DNA of 64,000 nucleotides from Candidatus Omnitrophota bacterium (GTDB lineage Bacteria; Omnitrophota; Gorgyraeia; Gygaellales; Profunditerraquicolaceae): assembly GCA_028715415.1 (NCBI GenBank), contig JAQURX010000004.1:20933-84932 (forward strand), given 5' to 3'. Shown here piece after piece: positions 2,628-62,332 of this stretch (its first letter is position 1; each line of letters starts with the position of its first letter). A program made the position numbers and the translations under genes. Below the pieces are notes generated by a model. The model saw only the letters and a program-made list of their open reading frames with translations, ran no database searches and was not told the origin of the DNA.

Positions 2628-3364
2628 ATACTTTCTCCTATTCTCCGCAGCGTATCTAAACTTATGCCTTTATCATTTAAATCCATCAACGAACAACCAT
2701 TAATACAAATTTTCTCAATTTCTTTATCTTGAGGAATAGAACCGAGATAATTTAGCCCTAAATCCTGAATCTTCCCCGAATCTATCATATCGTTATAACA
2801 GTTTACAATCAAAAATGATTTTTTAATCTTGATCTCTAAATCTTTAGTTAAATCCTTTATCCTTTTTGCAGCCTTAAGTCCAACCACAGAAGCATTTGAT
2901 ACAATTACAAGTGCATCCGCTGACCGGGTTGTCCTTCTGGAAAGATGTTCAAGGCCTGCCTCATTATCAATAATAATAAAATCGTAATCATTGATCAGCT
3001 TTCCCATAATATTTCTCAAAGAATTATTCACATAGCAGTAACATCCGGGGCCTTCAGGCTTGCCCATTGTAAGAAGATCAAATCCATCAGCTTCAACTAT
3101 TGCTGTTTGTACTTGAAATTCAATAAACCTGTCTTTTGGCATTCCGCTGGGGATTTTTTCAGGATGGGCTGAAATGCCATCAAGAATATTCCCTATCGTT
3201 GCCTTTACTTCAAGCCCAAGGCTTTCCGCCAGATTACTATTCGGGTCAGCATCAATCGCCAAAACAGAACCTAATTTCTTTTCTTTGATTATCCTGACAA
3301 TTAAAGCAGCAATGGTAGTTTTTCCTACTCCACCCTTTCCTGCCATTGCAATAACATAACCCAT
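2612..3364 (-). CDS. cooC: CooC/AcsF-type nickel-insertion ATPase (MinD/ParA P-loop family)
   Basis: Has the deviant Walker A (MAGKGGVGKTT) and a CYCYVNNSL (C-x-C) motif characteristic of CooC Ni-binding. 250 aa. Confidence 0.75.
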   Translation of the reverse strand: MGYVIAMAGKGGVGKTTIAALIVRIIKEKKLGSVLAIDADPNSNLAESLGLEVKATIGNILDGISAHPEKIPSGMPKDRFIEFQVQTAIVEADGFDLLTMGKPEGPGCYCYVNNSLRNIMGKLINDYDFIIIDNEAGLEHLSRRTTRSADALVIVSNASVVGLKAAKRIKDLTKDLEIKIKKSFLIVNCYNDMIDSGKIQDLGLNYLGSIPQDKEIEKICINGCSLMDLNDKGISLDTLRRIGESIWQVS

Positions 3365-3367
3365 AGC

Positions 3368-5296
3368 CTAAAATCTAACCGAAGAAAACTTTGTTAAATC
3401 CGTATGCGGAAAAAACAATGCTGCCATATATTCATCCATATAACACGGATCAACCGATAACTCAAAATAAGTGATTTTCTTGGCAATCTCATCGGCAATC
3501 TTAATTGCTTCACTGGAAAGGAGCATCATACGAGAGCCTGCCAAAGAGCTATTCCCGATAAAGAAAAACCGTTTTCTATCAATATCCGGCAATAGGCCAA
3601 TTTCAACCGCTGATTCTATATTTAGAGAAGTGCCAAACCCCCCAGCAATAAAGATTTTTTTTACGTCTTTAAAATCAAATCCCATATGTTTGACTAAAAT
3701 TGATGTCGCGGAATAAATCGCAGCTTTAGCACGTTTCAGATTGTCAATATCAGCTTCAGTGATTACTATATCCTGCGTTGAATTTGCCTCCTCTTTAAAA
3801 ACGAGGATAAATTCCTTTCCCATTTCAACGTTACGAACGCGCTTATGATTGCTGACGTTAATCCTTCCGTTTTTATCAATAATTCCTGCCTTAAGCATCT
3901 GAGGAATTGCTGAAATATACCCCGAGCCACAAATCCCGCGTGGTTTTTCATCAGCAATTGTCTCAACTTTTACCTCAAGATTTTTTGGGTTAATTGTTAC
4001 ATTTTGAATTGCGCCATGGCTTGCCCTCATGCCACAAGTTACTCCGCTTCCTTCAAACGCAGGCCCCGCAGAAGCAGCGCAAGCAACCAAGAAATCATTA
4101 TTACCCAGGCAGATTTCACCGTTTGTGCCGATATCAATCAAGATGCTTAAATCCTTTTCTTTATAAACTCCACTTGAAAGAACACCTGCAGTTGTGTCTC
4201 CTCCGACGTAACTGGCCACTCCGGGAACACATGACAATAAACCTCTTGGATTTATATTAATCCCTGCTTCTTGCGCGCGAATCGTTGGAATAAAATTTGC
4301 CGTAGGAACATACGGCTCTTTCCTGATATAAGTCGGGTCAACACCCAACAAAAGATGGATCATAGTGGTATTTCCCGCACAGATTATACAAGTAGCATCA
4401 TTTAAATCAATTTTATGCTCTGTAATTAATTCCGTAATAATTTCGTTCATTGTATCGGTAACAGCATCATGCAATTTTGCCAATCCGTCTTCTTCTTTTG
4501 CATAAATAATACGCGTAATCACATCAGAGCCAAAACTTGCCTGCTTATTATAAGCAGCTTTAGTCCCTAACACTTTTTTATCGTTTAAATTAACCAGTTG
4601 CCCGGAAATCGTGGTTGTCCCTATATCAAAAGCAAGGCCAAAATTTTTTAAAGACGTATCCCCCGGCTCAATCAAAACAATTTCAACAGAATCATTTCTT
4701 TTCCCCAGTGTTACAGTAACCTTCCAGTTTGAATCACGTAATAGCTCCCCAAGCTGTTTAATATTTGAAAGCCCTGTTTGAGAAACGGACAGTTTCTTCT
4801 TCTTCTGGATTTCGCTATACAACCTTTCCAGGTCACTGACTCTATCTTCTAAGTTTGGCTCAGGAAGTTCTAAATAAGCCTTTGTCGCAAGTGGAGAATG
4901 CTCAAATAATTCTCCCCCTAAAATAAACTTAATCGGCTCAATTTCCTCTGCTTCAGAGTAAAGCCCTTTAAGCCTTGCTTCCAATTCTTGAGGAGATAAT
5001 TTCTCTAAACTTTGACGTGATTCCGGGGGAACTTCAACCTCTAAGTCGCTATGGATTGTGGTTAGGCAAGCCAAATAAATATGCCTTCTTTTTTCTTCAA
5101 GGCTTAAGACTCCGGAAGATTGAGTTGAAACATTGCCTTTCTTTAATACAACCTTACACCTTCCGCAAACCCCATCTCCCCCGCAGGCAGAATTAATATG
5201 AACCCCTGCCGAAATTGCCGCTGAAAGTATAGTTTTGTCCTTTTCAACCTCTACAGTTTTGTTATCAGGATAAAACGTAACTTTAAATTTTTCCAT
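3368..5296 (-). CDS. Reductive activator of corrinoid Fe-S protein (RACo/AcsV-like): N-terminal plant-type [2Fe-2S] ferredoxin domain plus ASKHA ATPase domain
   Basis: N-terminus carries SACGGDGVCGRCKV plus a later Cys, as in a 2Fe-2S ferredoxin. The protein is 642 aa, matching RACo. It sits between acsC and cooC as in acetogens. Confidence 0.6.
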   Translation of the reverse strand: MEKFKVTFYPDNKTVEVEKDKTILSAAISAGVHINSACGGDGVCGRCKVVLKKGNVSTQSSGVLSLEEKRRHIYLACLTTIHSDLEVEVPPESRQSLEKLSPQELEARLKGLYSEAEEIEPIKFILGGELFEHSPLATKAYLELPEPNLEDRVSDLERLYSEIQKKKKLSVSQTGLSNIKQLGELLRDSNWKVTVTLGKRNDSVEIVLIEPGDTSLKNFGLAFDIGTTTISGQLVNLNDKKVLGTKAAYNKQASFGSDVITRIIYAKEEDGLAKLHDAVTDTMNEIITELITEHKIDLNDATCIICAGNTTMIHLLLGVDPTYIRKEPYVPTANFIPTIRAQEAGININPRGLLSCVPGVASYVGGDTTAGVLSSGVYKEKDLSILIDIGTNGEICLGNNDFLVACAASAGPAFEGSGVTCGMRASHGAIQNVTINPKNLEVKVETIADEKPRGICGSGYISAIPQMLKAGIIDKNGRINVSNHKRVRNVEMGKEFILVFKEEANSTQDIVITEADIDNLKRAKAAIYSATSILVKHMGFDFKDVKKIFIAGGFGTSLNIESAVEIGLLPDIDRKRFFFIGNSSLAGSRMMLLSSEAIKIADEIAKKITYFELSVDPCYMDEYMAALFFPHTDLTKFSSVRF

Positions 5297-6628: not shown

Positions 6629-7048
6629 TTACTCTCCGGTTAGATTAAATAAATTTAGTGGGTTGGATTTAAATAATTCCTTCGCAAAATTCTCAGAAAC
6701 CTTGTGTCCTTTTATTTTATTCAGCTGTTCAATCAAGCCTTCCTTTAAACTTATTTCAATATTTCTCTTACTATCTAAATTCTTAAATAGAATACGGATT
6801 CTTTTCCCATCAATCTTCTGGATATTTCCTTTGCCATACGTAGCCCCGCTTGAAAGCTGCAAGCCGTCAATAAGGCAAGATTTAGGCCTTTGATTTGCCC
6901 CCCAAACCAAAACATCCAAACCAAAATACTTTTTGCACTTTAATTTCTTTAACGCAATATTTCCGGCCATAAGCCCTAAAACAAGATATGGGCCCAAGTG
7001 GCCATGGAATTTAACAGCTTCCTTAAGAGTTATCCTATTGTTGTTCAT
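6629..7048 (-). CDS. FmdE/FwdE-domain family protein (FHGH motif), Cys-less variant
   Basis: VKFHGHLGPYLVLGLMAG resembles the FHGHxCPG signature of the formylmethanofuran dehydrogenase subunit E-like family, but Gly replaces the Cys. 139 aa. Confidence 0.45.
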   Translation of the reverse strand: MNNNRITLKEAVKFHGHLGPYLVLGLMAGNIALKKLKCKKYFGLDVLVWGANQRPKSCLIDGLQLSSGATYGKGNIQKIDGKRIRILFKNLDSKRNIEISLKEGLIEQLNKIKGHKVSENFAKELFKSNPLNLFNLTGE

Positions 7049-33051: not shown

Positions 33052-33107
33052 TTCATTTCCCCCTTGTTTATTTCTGTTTTAAAAAGATACTTTCCAAAAA
33101 TTTAAAA

Positions 33108-33568
33108 GGCAAGCAGAATAAGCCGAGTTTTGTATCAATGCGAATTCTTGCGCATCCAAGTGATCATTTCTCTCGATCCTGGGCTTTTTCCCAGGACTCT
33201 AGCAGTTTACCCTCCCGTCCAGATATCTTTTCCATAATATCTAAAAGCGGACCACTTTCAACTCGCTTTAATAGCGAGAAAAACGGGACTATTGCACCTT
33301 ACTCCACGCGGGGTTTTCCGTCCAAACTGCATCACTGCAGCTTAGGGTAGTCTCTTACACTGCCTTTTCACCTTTACCCCCACACCAATTTTTATATAGC
33401 AGATGCTATAGCAAAATTGGTGTGGGGGAAGTTTATTTTCTGTGGCACTTTCCATGGCTTTGAAAAATTTCAAAACCCCTCTCAATTAAAGAGCGCGTTT
33501 GTCCTCTGGAGCCCGGACTTTCCTCCCCCGCACCAATTAAGTGCGGAAGCGACCACCTTCTGCTTGCC
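33108..33568 (-). ncRNA. rnpB: RNase P RNA, bacterial type A (rnpB)
   Basis: The minus-strand RNA contains GGAGGAAAGUCCGGGCUCCAGAGG (P4 5' strand), GGUAAAGGUGAAAAGGCAGUGUAAGAGACUACC (P10.1/P11 region) and ACAAAACUCGGCUUAU (P4 3' strand). The termini GGCAAGCAGAA / UUCUGCUUGCC pair as P1, and a P3 hairpin CCGCAC-uuaauug-GUGCGG is present. The region has no credible ORF. Confidence 0.9.
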
Positions 33569-33982
33569 TTAATTTTTACTTTTTACTGCCTTCTTAATCG
33601 CTAAATTAGCCAATTTATCCGCGCCAGAATTTTCTTCTCTTGGGATATGCTTCACGCAGACTTCTTCAAACCCCTGTATCAAACGAATTGCTTGGTTATA
33701 CAAAGGTATGATGTTAGGATGTTTGACTTTATAATCTTTGTTAATCTGCCTTGCGAGCAATTGGCTATCTGTATTAATCTGAAGAATTCTTGCCTTTAAA
33801 ATTAATGCTTCCTGCAATCCATAGATAAGCGCTGTATATTCAGCAACATTATTTGTAGCATTCCCAATAAAATCAGAAATATTTTTTACAACTTCCCCAC
33901 CTGAACACAAAACCACCCCTATACCAGCAGGCCCGGGATTTCCTTTTGACGCGCCATCTATATATAAATCAATCTTATTCAT
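33569..33982 (-). CDS. rnhA: Ribonuclease HI-like protein (short type-1 RNase H)
   Basis: DGASKGNPGPAGIGVV ... NNVAEYTALIYGL ... NTDSQLLARQI ... GADKLAN places the DEDD catalytic residues in the RNase H fold. 137 aa. Confidence 0.7.
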   Translation of the reverse strand: MNKIDLYIDGASKGNPGPAGIGVVLCSGGEVVKNISDFIGNATNNVAEYTALIYGLQEALILKARILQINTDSQLLARQINKDYKVKHPNIIPLYNQAIRLIQGFEEVCVKHIPREENSGADKLANLAIKKAVKSKN

Positions 33983-34733: not shown

Positions 34734-34807
34734 TGGGCGCAATAGGACTCGGACCTATGACCTCTACAATGTGAATGTAGCGCTCTAACCAACTGAGCTA
34801 TGCGCCC
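34734..34807 (-). tRNA. tRNA-Val (anticodon CAC)
   Basis: Minus-strand GGGCGCAUAGCUCAGUUGGUUAGAGCGCUACAUUCACAUUGUAGAGGUCAUAGGUUCGAGUCCUAUUGCGCCCA folds into a cloverleaf: 7-bp acceptor stem, GUUCGAGUC T-loop, anticodon loop UUCACAU. Confidence 0.9.
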
Positions 34808-34813
34808 GTAATC

Positions 34814-34886
34814 TGGGCCCACAGGGATTTGAACCCCGGACCAAGTGATTATGAGTCACCTGCTCTGACCACTGAGCTATGGGCCC
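34814..34886 (-). tRNA. tRNA-Met (anticodon CAU; elongator or tRNA-Ile2 lysidine type, not initiator)
   Basis: Minus-strand GGGCCCAUAGCUCAGUGGUCAGAGCAGGUGACUCAUAAUCACUUGGUCCGGGGUUCAAAUCCCUGUGGGCCCA has a perfect 7-bp acceptor stem and a GUUCAAAUC T-loop. It lacks the three G-C pairs of an initiator anticodon stem. Confidence 0.9.
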
Positions 34887-57737: not shown

Positions 57738-58895
57738 TTACCTGAAAGTTCTTTTTATTTTATCAGTAAAGCTTTCTTTGTTTATATTATCCCCAGAGGC
57801 TTTGGCAAATTCTTCAATTAAACGCCGCTGCTCCGCATTAAGGCTTTTAGGTATATCCACATCAACCTTAACTAATTCATCTCCAATCCCTTTTGAGTGC
57901 ACATCAGGAATTCCTTTTTCTTTAAGCCTGAATATGCTTCCCGATTGGGTTCCCGCAGGAATCTTCATCTCTACTTTACCGCCTAAAGTCGGGACTTCAA
58001 CTTGAGAGCCCAAAATCGCCTTTGATAAACTTATTTTAATCTCTGTCAAAATATCGTTATTATGCCTTTCAAAAACCGGATGTGGATGGATTTCAATAAC
58101 TACATATAAATCCCCCCTGTTGCCGGCTGTTCCGGATTCACCTTCGCCTCTTACACGCAGGCTTGAACCGGTATCAACCCCAGCAGGAATCTTTACTTTA
58201 ATTTTTCTGGAAACTTTTGTCCGGCCTTCTCCATTACATTCAGAGCAAGGAGTTTGGATTATCGATCCTTCGCCTCCACAGCGGGAACAAGTTTGTGCAA
58301 TTTGAAAAAATCCATTAGAAACTACCGTTCGTCCGCTTCCTTTGCATTGAGGGCAAGTATTTTTCTTGCTTCCGGGCTTTGCACCGGTGCCGGAACAATT
58401 AGAGCAAACTTCATATCTAGGCAAAGTAATTGTTTTCTCTGTACCAGTTGCGGCTTCTTCCAAAGTAATACTTACAGCAACCTCAAGATCCCTTCCCCGT
58501 TTTGCGCGCCTTCCTCCTCGAGTTCTCCCTCCAGAAATATCATACCCAAGGTCGCCGAAGATTTCATCAAACAATCCTCCACCAACGCCAAAATCTCCAA
58601 GATCCTGAAATACGCTGTTAAAATCCGCTCCCTTAAAGATATCTTCATAAGCATATTTCTGGTCGATACCAGAGTGTCCGTATTGATCATAAAGAGCACG
58701 CTTCTGCGAGTCAGAAAGAACCGCATAAGCCTCTGAGATTTCTTTAAATTTTTCCTCAGCTTCTTTTTTCTGCTCATGAGGAACCCTATCAGGATGATAT
58801 TTTAAAACTGCTTCCCTGTAGTTTTTCTTTATCTCATCAAGGCTGGCATTCTTCTGAACACCCAATATTTCATAGTAATCACGCTTAGTAGACAT
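57738..58895 (-). CDS. dnaJ: Chaperone DnaJ (start corrected to the ATG giving [13 protein letters not shown])
   Basis: J-domain with HPD (KYHPDRV), a G/F region, and four CxxCxGxG zinc-finger repeats. Confidence 0.95.
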
Positions 58896-58906
58896 GTATT
58901 TAAACC

Positions 58907-58984
58907 GTTTCAAGTTTCAAGTTGCAAGTTTCAAGAAAAACAGTTTCGGCATTCACCTGAAACCTGAAACTTGAAACCTGAAAC
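58907..58984 (-). repeat. Long imperfect inverted repeat built from 4 heptamer units per arm (GTTTCAR on one arm, YTGAAAC on the other) in the dnaK-dnaJ spacer; forms a roughly 29-bp stem in the operon-sense RNA
   Basis: Plus strand reads gtttcaag tttcaag ttgcaag tttcaag ... cctgaaac ctgaaac ttgaaac ctgaaac. In the minus-strand RNA the arms pair with one mismatch and three G-U wobbles. On the other strand the wobbles become A-C mismatches. Confidence 0.7.
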
Positions 58985-58992
58985 ATTCTTAT

Positions 58993-60924
58993 TTATTTCT
59001 TATCATCTTCCTCTTTAAACTCCGCATCAATTACATCATCTTTCTTGCCTTTTTCCTCTGTTGGCCCTTCCTGCTCCTGGCCACCTTGAGGCCCAGCTCC
59101 GCCTGCTTGCTGCTGTTGCTGTTGTTGCTGCTGTTGCTTTTGCGAAGCCTGCTTATAAATTTCTTCGGCTAATTTATGAGAAGCCTTGGTCAGGTCTTCC
59201 ATTCCTTTCTTAATTCTTTCAATATTCTTATCTTTTATCGCAGTCTTTAAATCATTGGCTTTAGCTTCAATATCAGCGCGTTCAGCTTGGCTGACTTTAT
59301 CGCCATAATCTTTCAATGATTTTTCTGTTGCATATACCAGATTATCCGCCTGATTGACTGCTTCAACTTCTTCTTTTTTCTTGGCATCATCCGCTGCAAA
59401 CTTCTCAGCATCCTTAACCATCTTTTCAATTTCTTCCTTAGAAAGTTTCTTAGGAGCGGTAATCCTAATTGATTGTTCCTTACCAGTTCCTAAATCTTTT
59501 GCCAAAACATGCACGATACCATTTGCATCAATATCAAAAGAAACTTCTACTTGAGGAACTCCGCGAGGAGCTGCGGGGATACCCACTAAATCAAACCTTC
59601 CCAACTCAACGTTATCATCTGCCATCTGTCGCTCGCCTTGAAGAACACGAATAGTAACAGCAGTTTGATTATCCGCAGCAGTAGAGAATACCTGTGACTT
59701 ACGAGTTGGAATTGTTGTGTTTCTATCAATTAATTTTGTATTAACCCCGCCTAAAGTTTCAATACCCAAAGACAATGGAGTAACGTCTAACAAAAGAACA
59801 TCCTTTACATCGCCTTTAATAATTGCCGCTTGTATTGCAGCGCCCAAAGCAACGCATTCCATTGGGTCAACGCCACGTTCAATCTTTTTGCCAAAATAAT
59901 CTTCAACAAATTTCTGAACAATGGGCATCCTGGTCGGGCCACCTACCATAATTATTTTATCTACGCCTTTATCGGTAAAACTAACGCCTTCCTTTTCAAA
60001 AGAATTCTTGGCATCTTTTAATGCCTGCTCAAGAGGGCCGCGGCATCTATCAATAATGGGGCCAACTAACTCTTCAAGCTTAGCGCGGTTAATTGACATG
60101 GTTAAATGCTTTGGTCCAGTTGCATCAGCAGTAATAAAAGGAAGATTTATATCAGTAGTTAATGTGCTTGAGAGTTCAACCTTTGCTTTTTCTGCTGCTT
60201 CGCGCAAACGCTGCATTGCCATCTTGTCATTTTTTAAATCAATACCTGTGTCACGCTTAAACTGATTGGCGATATAATCAATTATCACATTATCCATATC
60301 AGTTCCGCCGAGCTGAGTATCTCCACTCGTTGCCATTACTTTAAATCCGCCCTCTTTCCACATTTCCATAATGGTAACGTCAAGAGTTCCTCCACCAAAG
60401 TCAAAAACTAATATTTTTAATTCTTTTCCTGCTTTTTCCAGCCCATATGCAAGGCATGCTGCCGTAGGCTCATTAATAATACGTAAAACTTTTAATCCTG
60501 CAATTTCTCCTGCATCTTTAGTTGCCGTTCTTTGGTTATCATCAAAATAAGCAGGACAAGTGATAACTACTTCTTCTACTTTATCACCTAAATAAGCTTC
60601 TGCATCCTGTTTAACTTTCTGTAAAATAAATGAAGAAATCTGCTGAGGGGAATATTCTTTTCCATAGACCTTAAAGTGATAATCTGAACCCATCTTTCGT
60701 TTAGCTGCCTGGATTGTTCCTTCTGGGTTAATCGCAGCCTGACGCCTTGCGGGTTCTCCAACCAAGCGTTGCCCGTCTTTCGTAAAAGCAACATAAGAAG
60801 GAAATGCTTTTCCTGAAGCAACCCCAGCGCCTTCAGCAGAAGGTATGATTACAGGCCTTCCACCTTCCATAACCGCAGCAGCTGAATTTGAAGTCCCTAA
60901 GTCGATTCCAATAACTTTAGCCAT
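58993..60924 (-). CDS. dnaK: Chaperone DnaK (Hsp70) with C-terminal poly-Gln tract
   Basis: [23 protein letters not shown] and the other Hsp70 signatures. 643 aa. Twelve consecutive Gln lie near the C-terminus. Confidence 0.95.
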
Positions 60925-60925
60925 A

Positions 60926-61474
60926 TTATCCTCCCTTTTTGGAAACTTTAACTTTTGAAGTCCTTATAATTCTATCGTTTAATAAATACCCTTTTTGCAA
61001 TTCTTCTACAACTGTGTGATCCGGGAAATTCTTATCTTCAACCTGCATCAATGCTTCGTGGAAATTTGGATCAAATATTTTTCCTTTCGCCTCAATTGGC
61101 TTAACGCCATGTTTCTTAAGCGTCTCATAAAAATGCGCTAAAATCATCTCAACGCCTTTTAAGAATGCCGGCAAATCTTCATGCTTGGCTTGCGCCAATT
61201 CAACTGTGCGTTCCAGATCATCCAAAACATTTAATAGTTCAAAAATAATATCCTCATTAGCAAACTTTATAAAATCCTGCTTTTCTCTTTCTATGCGTTT
61301 ACGCGTATTGTCAACATCTGCCTGCATCCTGAGCATTTTATCCCAAGACTCTTGCCCTTTGGCAGCGTCTTCTTTCAGCTTGAGATACTCAGCTTCTTTA
61401 AGAGTAATAATGTTTTCTTCTTTCTTGTGGTTCTCTTTGTGATTTTCTTTTACGTTTTCTTTATGCTCTTCCAT
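60926..61474 (-). CDS. grpE: Nucleotide exchange factor GrpE
   Basis: 182 aa with a coiled-coil followed by a beta-sheet domain. Position between hrcA and dnaK. Confidence 0.9.
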
Positions 61475-61475
61475 A

Positions 61476-62213
61476 TTAAATAGTCTCCAAAACCTCTGTT
61501 AAGACGTCCGAGATATAACTTAGAGCAGGAATGATATGATTATATTCCATGCGCATTGGCCCTAATACCGCAAGTTTGCCCGATGGCTTATCTTTTCTGC
61601 GATAATTAGAAACAATTAAAGAACAATTCTCCATCCCCGGACAGCCTAATTCACTGCCTATATAAACCTTAACCTTTTCATTAAAATCCCTGTTAATAAC
61701 ATCCAATAGCCGCTCTTTATCTTCTATCATTTTAATCAATATGCGAATTTTTTCAGAATCATTAAATTCCGGCTGCTCAAGGACACGGCTTAACCCTTTA
61801 TAAAAAAGCTTATCATGCCAATCAAGAAATGAAACTATGCCTGCGTAACGGGTAATCGTAGAAATAATTACTGAAGTGTTTTCAAGAGCGTCTTCCAATC
61901 GCCGCATTTCTTTTTTGTATTCCTTGACTATACAGTCCTTTTCCTCGTCCAATAGCTCCATCTGAGAAATCAAAAAATCAACATAATAGCGATAACCCTT
62001 GCTTGTAGGAATTCTTCCGCCAGAAGTATAAGGATGTGCAAGATAACCTGACTCTTCAAGCTCCGCAAATATATTTCTTATTGTAGCAGAGCTTAAATCA
62101 AATTCTTCCGCAATATCATCCGAAGCAACAGGCGAAGCGTTGCCTATATACCGGTTGATCGCCGCCCTTAAAATTGACCTTCTTCTTGTATCGTAATCTA
62201 CGTTTTTAACCAT
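61476..62213 (-). CDS. hrcA: Heat-inducible transcription repressor HrcA (short form)
   Basis: N-terminal winged helix (SATIRNIFAELEESGYLAHPYTSGGRIPT). It is followed by grpE-dnaK-dnaJ and preceded by a CIRCE element. Confidence 0.8.
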   Translation of the reverse strand: MVKNVDYDTRRRSILRAAINRYIGNASPVASDDIAEEFDLSSATIRNIFAELEESGYLAHPYTSGGRIPTSKGYRYYVDFLISQMELLDEEKDCIVKEYKKEMRRLEDALENTSVIISTITRYAGIVSFLDWHDKLFYKGLSRVLEQPEFNDSEKIRILIKMIEDKERLLDVINRDFNEKVKVYIGSELGCPGMENCSLIVSNYRRKDKPSGKLAVLGPMRMEYNHIIPALSYISDVLTEVLETI

Positions 62214-62227
62214 ATTTTTGCTTTAAA

Positions 62228-62254
62228 TTAGCACTTTTCAATAAAAAGTGCTAG
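62228..62254 (-). promoter_or_regulatory. CIRCE operator (HrcA binding site) in the hrcA leader
   Basis: TTAGCACTT-N9-AAGTGCTAG against the consensus TTAGCACTC-N9-GAGTGCTAA. It lies 14 nt upstream of the hrcA start. Confidence 0.85.
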
Positions 62255-62304
62255 CCGATTCCTCTTTTTCTTTTAACTGCTTACTTCCCATAGGATAAGG
62301 TTAG

Positions 62305-62332
62305 ATTTTATCATAATTCTTTAGTTTGTCAA
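62305..62332 (-). promoter_or_regulatory. Sigma-70-type promoter of the hrcA-grpE-dnaK-dnaJ operon
   Basis: Minus strand reads TTGACA-16 nt-TAAAAT, with TGa immediately before the -10 (extended -10). CIRCE is downstream of the predicted start. Confidence 0.55.

Follow-up and report, generated by a model that had tools for sequence, protein, structure and literature searches.

Heptanucleotide repeats are the most abundant class of long repeats in prokaryotes, and a link to polymerase slippage and the polymerase footprint has been proposed, according to the accounts of Mrazek (2007) given in two later papers (PMC4679880, PMC4692102). Known intergenic examples include the STRR and GGGGAYT repeats of cyanobacteria, the GGGAATC repeats of Xanthomonas, and the TAACTGA repeats of Beggiatoaceae, the last of which adjoin start codons (PMC4692102, PMC4679880). 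Slippage is the proposed origin of such heptanucleotide simple-sequence repeats (SSRs). No description of heptamer hairpins in Omnitrophota, or of a GTTTCAR unit, was found in the searchable literature.

REP sequences can shield upstream mRNA from 3' exonucleases and thereby set relative expression within an operon, and Newbury et al. reportedly assigned them a role in differential mRNA stability in 1987. For the chaperone operon considered here, a low ratio of DnaJ to DnaK matters. In E. coli, most dnaK message takes the form of a 2.1-kb mRNA carrying only dnaK, and loss of RNase III by mutation increases the level of dnaJ mRNA (PMC3082872). The 3' ends of bacterial transcripts are associated with stem-loops, irrespective of how termination occurs (PMC13613805).

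The window, by which we mean the whole 64-kb stretch of DNA that was analyzed, carries an hrcA–grpE–dnaK–dnaJ operon on its minus strand. Other minus-strand genes that flank it are a clpB fragment, a zinc-ribbon gene, VanZ, DUF1015, and accD. The DnaJ protein has a 100% identical counterpart in a metagenome-assembled genome of Candidatus Omnitrophica/Omnitrophota, where it is encoded on a 137,734-bp contig. The parts of the operon are as follows.

62228..62332, minus strand: operon control region, with promoter and CIRCE-like repeat, directly upstream of hrcA
61476-62213, minus strand: hrcA
60926-61474, minus strand: grpE
58993..60924, minus strand: dnaK, 643 amino acids, stop codon TAA at 58993-58995
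57738..58895, minus strand: dnaJ, 385 amino acids, ATG at 58893-58895

The control region contains a near-consensus sigma-70-like promoter with a TG extension (TTGACA-16-TAAAAT, 11/12 matches, 62305-62332, minus strand) and the CIRCE-like inverted repeat TTAGCACTT-N9-AAGTGCTAG (62228-62254, minus strand). This arrangement upstream of hrcA identifies a classical HrcA-controlled heat-shock operon. A similar CIRCE is present in two loci of relatives, L082 and L209 (L numbers designate individual loci and contigs throughout). A promoter scan of the dnaK–dnaJ spacer found no promoter-like site on the sense strand, and dnaJ therefore must be transcribed through whatever structure the spacer forms. 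That structure has the following parts.

58907-58935, plus strand: left arm, GTTTCAA GTTTCAA GTTGCAA GTTTCAA G
58956-58984, plus strand: right arm, ACCTGAA ACCTGAA ACTTGAA ACCTGAA AC
58956..58984, minus strand: 5' arm of the sense RNA, four tandem heptamers, GUUUCAG GUUUCAA GUUUCAG GUUUCAG G
58936..58955, minus strand: 20-nt center between the arms, UGAAUGCCGAAACUGUUUUU, folded in the minimum free energy (MFE) structure as an inner helix of 3 bp and a loop of 12 nt
58907..58935, minus strand: 3' arm of the sense RNA, CUUGAAA CUUGCAA CUUGAAA CUUGAAA C

The element is a palindrome of a heptanucleotide SSR, made of two inverted tandem GTTTCAR arrays. Two arrays of period 7 were identified by TRF (GTTTCAA in 4.1 copies and ACCTGAA in 4.3, with 90–91% matches), and the minus-strand (sense) RNA reads (GUUUCAR)4 ... 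(CUUGMAA)4. Its predicted main stem comprises 29 bp with one U·C mismatch, which lies in the second unit of the 3' arm; three G·U pairs fall within the arrays, and another lies at the base of the stem. The stem begins 7–8 nt past the dnaK stop codon and ends 11 nt ahead of the dnaJ ATG. The sense strand folds with an MFE of −40.6 kcal/mol (z = −5.97), and none of 200 shuffled sequences is equally stable. The plus-strand RNA of the same spacer reaches just −26.3 kcal/mol because the G·U wobbles turn into A·C there. Both the stem of 4 + 4 heptamers with one mismatch and several wobbles and its strand asymmetry had been described in an earlier note on this DNA, and the fold and TRF confirm that description.

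At 58907-58984, the hairpin is the longest inverted repeat within the window and includes its sole genuine pair of heptamer arrays. In this compact window, just nine gaps between genes reach 50 nt. Over 3860 bp that include the hairpin, a Logan assembly of run SRR22315506 matches the window exactly, and this independent assembly indicates that the hairpin is not an artifact. Elsewhere in the window are a class A RNase P RNA (33103-33569, minus strand; 232 bits; 467 nt versus a 367-position model) and genes for tRNA-Val and tRNA-Met (34734-34886). Within the RNase P RNA is a 25-bp near-perfect inverted repeat (33377-33428) that looks like a lineage-specific helix extension.

Several known types of element do not account for the hairpin. 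Searches with Rfam 15, carried out by E-value on positions 58000-60000 and at the gathering threshold on the whole window, gave no family that passed for it. The best score was 44.6 bits against a threshold of 97, and such hits are chance look-alikes of miRNA precursors. The Rfam-listed tpke11, heat-shock element, and thermometer entries likewise have no match at the gathering threshold. A CIRCE operator (TTAGCACTC-N9-GAGTGCTAA) is rejected as the identity of the spacer because the window's only CIRCE-like site is the one at 62228-62254. A CRISPR array, with repeats of 24–48 nt and unique spacers, is ruled out because the units are contiguous 7-nt sequences without spacers. Heptanucleotide SSRs are recognized by at least three head-to-tail 7-nt units, and the arms have this number of units and lie in intergenic, noncoding DNA. 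The tandem-heptamer construction, which the earlier note had considered unusual, is the signature of a known repeat class.

A strong stem-loop directly 3' of a stop codon might stop most transcripts beyond dnaK by intrinsic (Rho-independent) termination, and dnaK-only transcripts do predominate in other bacteria. Intrinsic terminators, however, consist of a G+C-rich stem and a U-tract, and no U-tract is found 3' of this stem, where the tail reads GGUUUAAAUAC. The stem is A/U-rich, and a terminator scan does not call the hairpin. Among the 38 relatives with long spacers that are described below, a T-rich tail (no fewer than 5 T among the first 8 nt 3' of the stem) is present in only one. The earlier note had already argued that this is not a simple terminator, and we agree that such a function is very unlikely.

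The same note had listed thermosensing among the candidate functions. If the hairpin were an RNA thermometer or translational attenuator, heat shock would open it and allow dnaJ to be translated. Known thermometers, ROSE and fourU among them, hide the SD or AUG in a helix of marginal stability that melts at physiological temperatures. Such a role would fit the heat-shock operon, the stem that ends 11 nt before a start codon lacking a Shine–Dalgarno (SD) sequence, and the periodic wobble pairs. The prediction, however, retains the whole stem at 80°C (−7.1 kcal/mol) and most of it at 90°C. Moreover, the helix holds neither an SD nor an AUG, its sequence is not conserved, and no Rfam thermometer matches it. 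We regard temperature sensing by this hairpin as extremely improbable.

A small open reading frame (ORF) also passes through the hairpin.

58900..58986, minus strand: 28-codon ORF, with its AUG 6 nt past the dnaK stop and its end 4 nt before the dnaJ ATG

If ribosomes reinitiated after the dnaK stop codon, they could translate this ORF through the hairpin and so preserve coupling to dnaJ. In the window, its frame stays open precisely because of the one mismatch in the stem, which changes TGA to TGC. Counts in other genomes point the other way: a spacer-spanning ORF occurs in three of the 38 relatives, whereas shuffled sequences yield 5–14 (mean ∼9.5) and the reverse strand 11. The ORF as judged from these counts is probably fortuitous, and there is little reason to believe in a relay ORF.

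The comparison set consisted of 80 species-level Omnitrophota loci in which dnaK lies directly upstream of dnaJ, and the junction counts cover 78 related species. In about half of the relatives, dnaK and dnaJ overlap or are separated by a spacer of at most 30 nt, while in the other half the spacer is 55–165 nt in length. A set of 38 nonredundant relatives with spacers of at least 50 nt was used to characterize the long form. The fold has z < −3 in 32 of these long spacers, and in 24 a period of 7 is best on both arms. The stems have a median of 24.5 pairs, and the median distances are 3 nt from stop codon to stem and 9 nt from stem to start codon.

Unit sequence and copy number vary among the 38 species, and nearly every species has its own unit. 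Examples are TTTTCAG, TTTCAGC, TTCATGG, CTCATAG, CTAGTAA, GTAGTAG, CGGATAG, CGTATTG, AGTATTG, and GTGTAAT, together with a few 8-mers. Relatives whose DnaJ proteins are 81–82% identical to that of the window have CTAGTAA/TTACGAG, GTAGTAG, or GTGTAAT, or no spacer, as opposed to the GTTTCAR of the window. The earlier note had suggested looking for a structure in the spacers of relatives. A hairpin is indeed there in about half of them, but its sequence is unrelated. By sequence comparison, the window hairpin is one instance of a group of fast-evolving heptamer-array hairpins that fill spacers in many Omnitrophota. Presence and absence of the hairpin are interleaved on a tree of DnaJ, and sister taxa frequently differ. 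Because about half of the relatives, including sisters of carriers, lack the spacer, the hairpin must be dispensable and often gained or lost. Many of the stems have a mismatch or wobble that recurs every 7 nt, which is expected from homogenization of the tandem units within each arm.

Within species, the spacers are identical (L081/L082, L209/L210, L034/L036, and ten samples of L211-L220). Phase variation by copy number is rejected because no within-species change was seen in the spacers compared. Between L021 and L023, the changes in the stem mostly preserve the structure; they include a compensatory double change and a number of G·U intermediates. Lineages without heptamers also place strong hairpins at this junction. 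For example, the L211-L220 loci (CG23_combo relatives) have a 259-nt dnaK–dnaJ spacer (142-400) with four strong non-heptamer hairpins that total −86.7 kcal/mol, and its sequence is invariant across the ten samples.

Three kinds of data bear on selection at this junction. The first is the distribution of the arrays. Of 78 dnaK–dnaJ spacers, 20 contain a strong period-7 array, compared with 11 of the 248 spacers at the five remaining junctions of the operon (Fisher P = 4e-7), although this enrichment could reflect tolerance instead of benefit.

The second is strand asymmetry. At dnaK–dnaJ, the sense fold has the lower energy in 25 species and the antisense fold in 10 (mean difference −3.6 kcal/mol, P = 0.003), and the hairpins contain 112 G·U pairs in the sense RNA versus 61 in the antisense RNA. 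The G+T fraction is 0.49–0.51 at fourfold sites and in other spacers, and therefore base composition does not account for the G·U excess of the sense strand. Transcription-associated mutation bias is excluded as its cause only indirectly. The overall bias is modest, and several species, including L047 and L015, have the opposite one. It is weaker at the junction of dnaJ with the zinc-ribbon gene (17 versus 6) and absent at grpE–dnaK and DUF1015–accD. Generic GTTTCAR hairpins from other genomes have no sense bias (14 versus 20). Arm polarity, with the G+T-rich arm first, is not significant (26/39, P = 0.16).

The strand data also bear on the possibility that the element acts as DNA, either as protein-bound heptamer iterons or through a cruciform with an effect on replication or transcription. 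The layout, inverted arrays of direct repeats, resembles that of iterons, and some members of the class are found in divergent promoter regions. Yet the asymmetry between G·U and A·C is strand-specific, which is not expected of a site in duplex DNA. Furthermore, the 7-bp period differs from the helical repeat, and the unit is not conserved between close species. A DNA-level role is accordingly a distant prospect.

The third concerns the start of dnaJ. The window has no SD-like motif upstream of the dnaJ ATG, as the earlier note had pointed out, and the same is true of the lineage. SD-like motifs precede dnaJ in only four of 40 long-spacer loci and 10 of 40 short-spacer loci, whereas one precedes dnaK in 43 of 44 and the zinc-ribbon gene in 33 of 36. 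Translation of DnaJ therefore appears to depend on its coupling to that of dnaK, and the hairpin lies at the very place where the coupling takes place.

These patterns suggest that selection does act, modestly, at the dnaK–dnaJ junction. Junction enrichment, sense-strand stability, and the SD-less dnaJ start argue for a role at the RNA level. The strand-specific reading given in the earlier note is plausible, and the greater stability of the sense fold across species gives it some support, while the effect on dnaJ that it proposed is something we infer from sequence.

Heptamer arrays are not confined to this junction. In the same Omnitrophota loci, the grpE–dnaK spacer, the gap that follows dnaJ, and further junctions also contain period-7 arrays. 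The 76 arrays in these loci represent 55 distinct units, and single-linkage clustering of the units was uninformative because all of them chained together. One composite element, in which AGAGAAC arrays are followed by an A/T-rich loop, by GTTCTCT arrays, and by the tail CCGAGCGAAGCGAGG common to all copies, is present at least four times within 7 kb of locus L050. In L209, arrays or hairpins with several different units are present in 6–7 of nine spacers around the operon. A tail motif, CCGAGCGAAGCGAGG(A) or CGACGAAAGGAGC, which carries an SD, lies directly 3' of heptamer hairpins in several species and at several junctions (L050 at ∼985-1001, 2985-3000, 4250-4268, and 6910-6935; spacers of L045, L049, L053, L058, L074, and L209).

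The coding regions of the operon contain short repeats as well. Heptamer tandem repeats (e.g., CAGAAGA/CAGAGGA) are found inside the region that encodes the disordered C-terminal tail of DnaK (L063 at 2740-2796, L050 at 2767-2798, L045 at 2893-2922, L056 at 2810-2843, L024 at 2915-2939, and L037 at ∼160-200). Since these heptamers lie in coding DNA, the frame is kept only by copy-number changes in multiples of three. In the window genome, the corresponding tail region carries a CAR (polyglutamine) trinucleotide repeat (59107-59143, minus strand). A different, non-heptamer structured element, ccccctcgcag.gctcggggtcattttt.cccc.agcgcc.gaggctgggg, is conserved just upstream of the dnaK SD in the grpE–dnaK spacers of L004, L047, and L070, and it is also present in the spacer between dnaJ and the zinc-ribbon gene in L021. 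This element could be a distinct regulatory RNA of the operon.

Metagenomes were scanned for three tandem GTTTCAR units, which were found on at least 120 contigs. The G+C content of these contigs ranges from 31 to 69%, and many of the arrays are inverted pairs that fill spacers. The surrounding genes are co-directional, convergent, or divergent, and among the contigs listed none of the arrays adjoins dnaK or dnaJ. Four of the contigs encode proteins in 90%-identity clusters with members from Aequorivita, Flavobacterium, Prevotella, and Lacunisphaera, which are genera of Bacteroidota and Verrucomicrobiota. The contigs also hold ∼140 arrays of 111 other heptamers, whereas periods of 8 or 9 are rare among their arrays. 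Viral contigs contain 92 stretches with GTTTCAR arrays. Some viral or metagenome contigs have very long arrays, such as L285 (2361-3072, 26 pattern matches), L274 (11958-12082, six abutting matches), and L187 (2499-2581, four).

As judged from these matches, the heptamer-array architecture, and even the GTTTCAR unit, is also found in unrelated bacteria and viral contigs. GTTTCAR is not a special cross-phylum unit, however, because control heptamers of the same composition reach comparable numbers in viral contigs (15, 20, 26, and 80 stretches versus 92). The reading of the hairpin as a conserved, operon-specific element does not survive these findings: outside this genome, the arrays are found in viral DNA and at unrelated loci in all gene-orientation contexts, the latter being what the earlier note had named as grounds for refutation. 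The further idea that GTTTCAR arrays might be dispersed finds no second example in the window, but many outside this genome.

One explanation for this distribution is that the arrays are neutral or selfish by-products of slippage, which accumulate wherever a gap tolerates them and have no function at dnaK–dnaJ. The occurrence of GTTTCAR at so many unrelated loci, the similar counts for control heptamers, the 55 distinct units among 76 arrays, and the frequent differences between sister species in the presence of the hairpin are all as this explanation would predict. In addition, the generic GTTTCAR hairpins lack a sense-strand bias and are found in every gene-orientation context, including divergent and convergent ones, and many of them therefore may lack an RNA role. 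Other observations are difficult to explain in this way. The dnaK–dnaJ junction is sevenfold enriched over neighboring junctions, and its sense-strand stability and G·U excess go beyond the composition of neutral sites. Three comparisons within species show no copy-number change, and in one pair of species, L037 and L081, the spacers are 74/74 identical when third codon positions are just 54% identical. A purely neutral origin is possible but, on this evidence, not the likelier account.

The L037 spacer raises the question of mobility. Its 74 nt are identical between L037 (1-372) and both L081 (2958-3328) and L082 (3438-3808), whereas the flanking dnaK and dnaJ DNA is 78% identical. The identity ends exactly at the stop and start codons. 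Locus L204, whose protein P0003 is closer to L037, has no spacer at all. Either extreme purifying selection on the hairpin or lateral arrival of the element could produce this pattern.

One form of lateral arrival would be a mobile REPIN- or MITE-like miniature element that inserts at stop–start junctions, and a later RNA role would be compatible with such an origin. The identical hairpin in two species with diverged flanks and its absence from a closer relative are what insertion should leave behind. The multicopy composites of L050, with their common loop style and tail, are also suggestive, as is the reappearance of unit families in distant genomes at different junctions. There is a precedent in the trnL P6b element of Nostoc, in which repeat classes have been replaced independently of phylogeny (PMC4476775). 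Searches for marks of insertion gave little. No target-site duplications flank the hairpins (mean flank match 3.55 versus a null value of 3.64), no transposase was identified, and the L037-type 74-nt core was not found in viral contigs. Copy number is low, with one element in the 64-kb window and one in 14.5 kb of L081, and slippage plus selection suffices for most of the pattern. We therefore view insertion of a mobile element as unlikely.

A bolder extension is that heptamer-array palindromes in Omnitrophota and other phyla might be actively spreading miniature intergenic elements, transferred laterally or generated by a dedicated mechanism, that could have been co-opted at stop–start junctions to set operon protein ratios. 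The best hint is the hairpin shared by L037 and L081 despite saturated synonymous sites, and we offer this idea as speculation with a small chance of being correct.

As a whole, the best explanation, to which we give a slight overall preference, is that the element is a slippage-made SSR hairpin that both lowers the synthesis of DnaJ relative to DnaK and uncouples it. Replication slippage would favor 7-nt units and would expand and homogenize each arm, so that wobble and mismatch positions recur every 7 nt. The product would be transcribed inside the operon mRNA as a stem-loop of about −40 kcal/mol, standing in for the stop/start overlap used by about half of the relatives.

There are two ways in which such a stem could act. 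First, it might block 3'–5' exonucleases or be a substrate for a double-strand-specific RNase. Either event could leave a stable hrcA–grpE–dnaK upstream mRNA and less dnaJ mRNA, and the stem may define the 3' end of that upstream message. With 29 predicted base pairs and one 1x1 mismatch, it has the roughly two turns (at least 20 bp) of near-continuous double-stranded RNA expected of an RNase III substrate. Cleavage by RNase III and stabilization of mRNA are plausible candidate effects. Second, the helix would fill the region directly upstream of the SD-less dnaJ start and thereby limit reinitiation. Initiation at dnaJ would then depend on ribosomes that open the helix while terminating at the dnaK stop codon. 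By attenuation or uncoupling of dnaJ in these two ways, the hairpin probably lowers dnaJ output relative to that of dnaK.

What appeared to be a unique regulatory hairpin is thus one example of general 7-base tandem-repeat hairpins. The same junction has been occupied repeatedly across an uncultured phylum while the sequence of the hairpin turned over completely. This provides a natural series of ∼40 different hairpins and ∼40 hairpin-free controls at one well-understood junction, which makes the long-standing question of the role of bacterial heptanucleotide repeats directly testable. There is also a caution for annotators: long, strand-biased stems in compact genomes may derive from repeats and not from conserved RNA genes.

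The window hairpin belongs to the known class of heptanucleotide-repeat hairpins, in a phylum that is new for it. Like known heptanucleotide SSRs, it is composed of tandem 7-nt intergenic units of the kind that often adjoin start or stop codons. Such repeats lie between the same genes in related species and are highly variable in length and sequence, as is true here, and some Xanthomonas arrays are inverted pairs capable of forming stem-loops. The Omnitrophota arrays differ in their unit and in that both arms are nearly always present, giving one long hairpin. Their repeated occurrence at one junction of the operon, where the sense fold tends to be the more stable, is another difference. The window itself is repeat-poor, with one element in 64 kb, whereas L050 and L209 carry arrays at most junctions.

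A close structural parallel is the P6b element of the Nostoc tRNA-Leu(UAA) group I intron, in which both arms likewise consist of complementary 7-nt repeat motifs (PMC4476775). There too, the structure is kept while the class of repeat is swapped, and length changes by whole units (PMC4476775). In contrast to the elements described here, P6b is inside a self-splicing intron, not between cistrons, and it has two repeat classes versus dozens of units (PMC4476775).

With regard to location, the structured RNA between dnaK and dnaJ in E. coli (tpke11 region) and the processing of dnaK operons in Firmicutes are similar to the present case, in that the heat-shock transcript is dicistronic or polycistronic. 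The E. coli element, however, is not made of tandem repeats and has no sequence or Rfam similarity to the hairpin. The REP, BIME, and REPIN sequences of Enterobacteria and Pseudomonas resemble it as extragenic, genome-specific palindromes between co-transcribed genes, but REPs are unique palindromes of 20–40 nt that are present in hundreds of copies and linked to RAYT transposases (PMC3116915). Membership in that family is rejected because the arms are tandem repeats and not a unique palindrome, with one copy in 64 kb and no flanking duplications. By analogy, a REP-like intercistronic stabilizer would be the nearest functional counterpart of the heptamer hairpin between dnaK and dnaJ.
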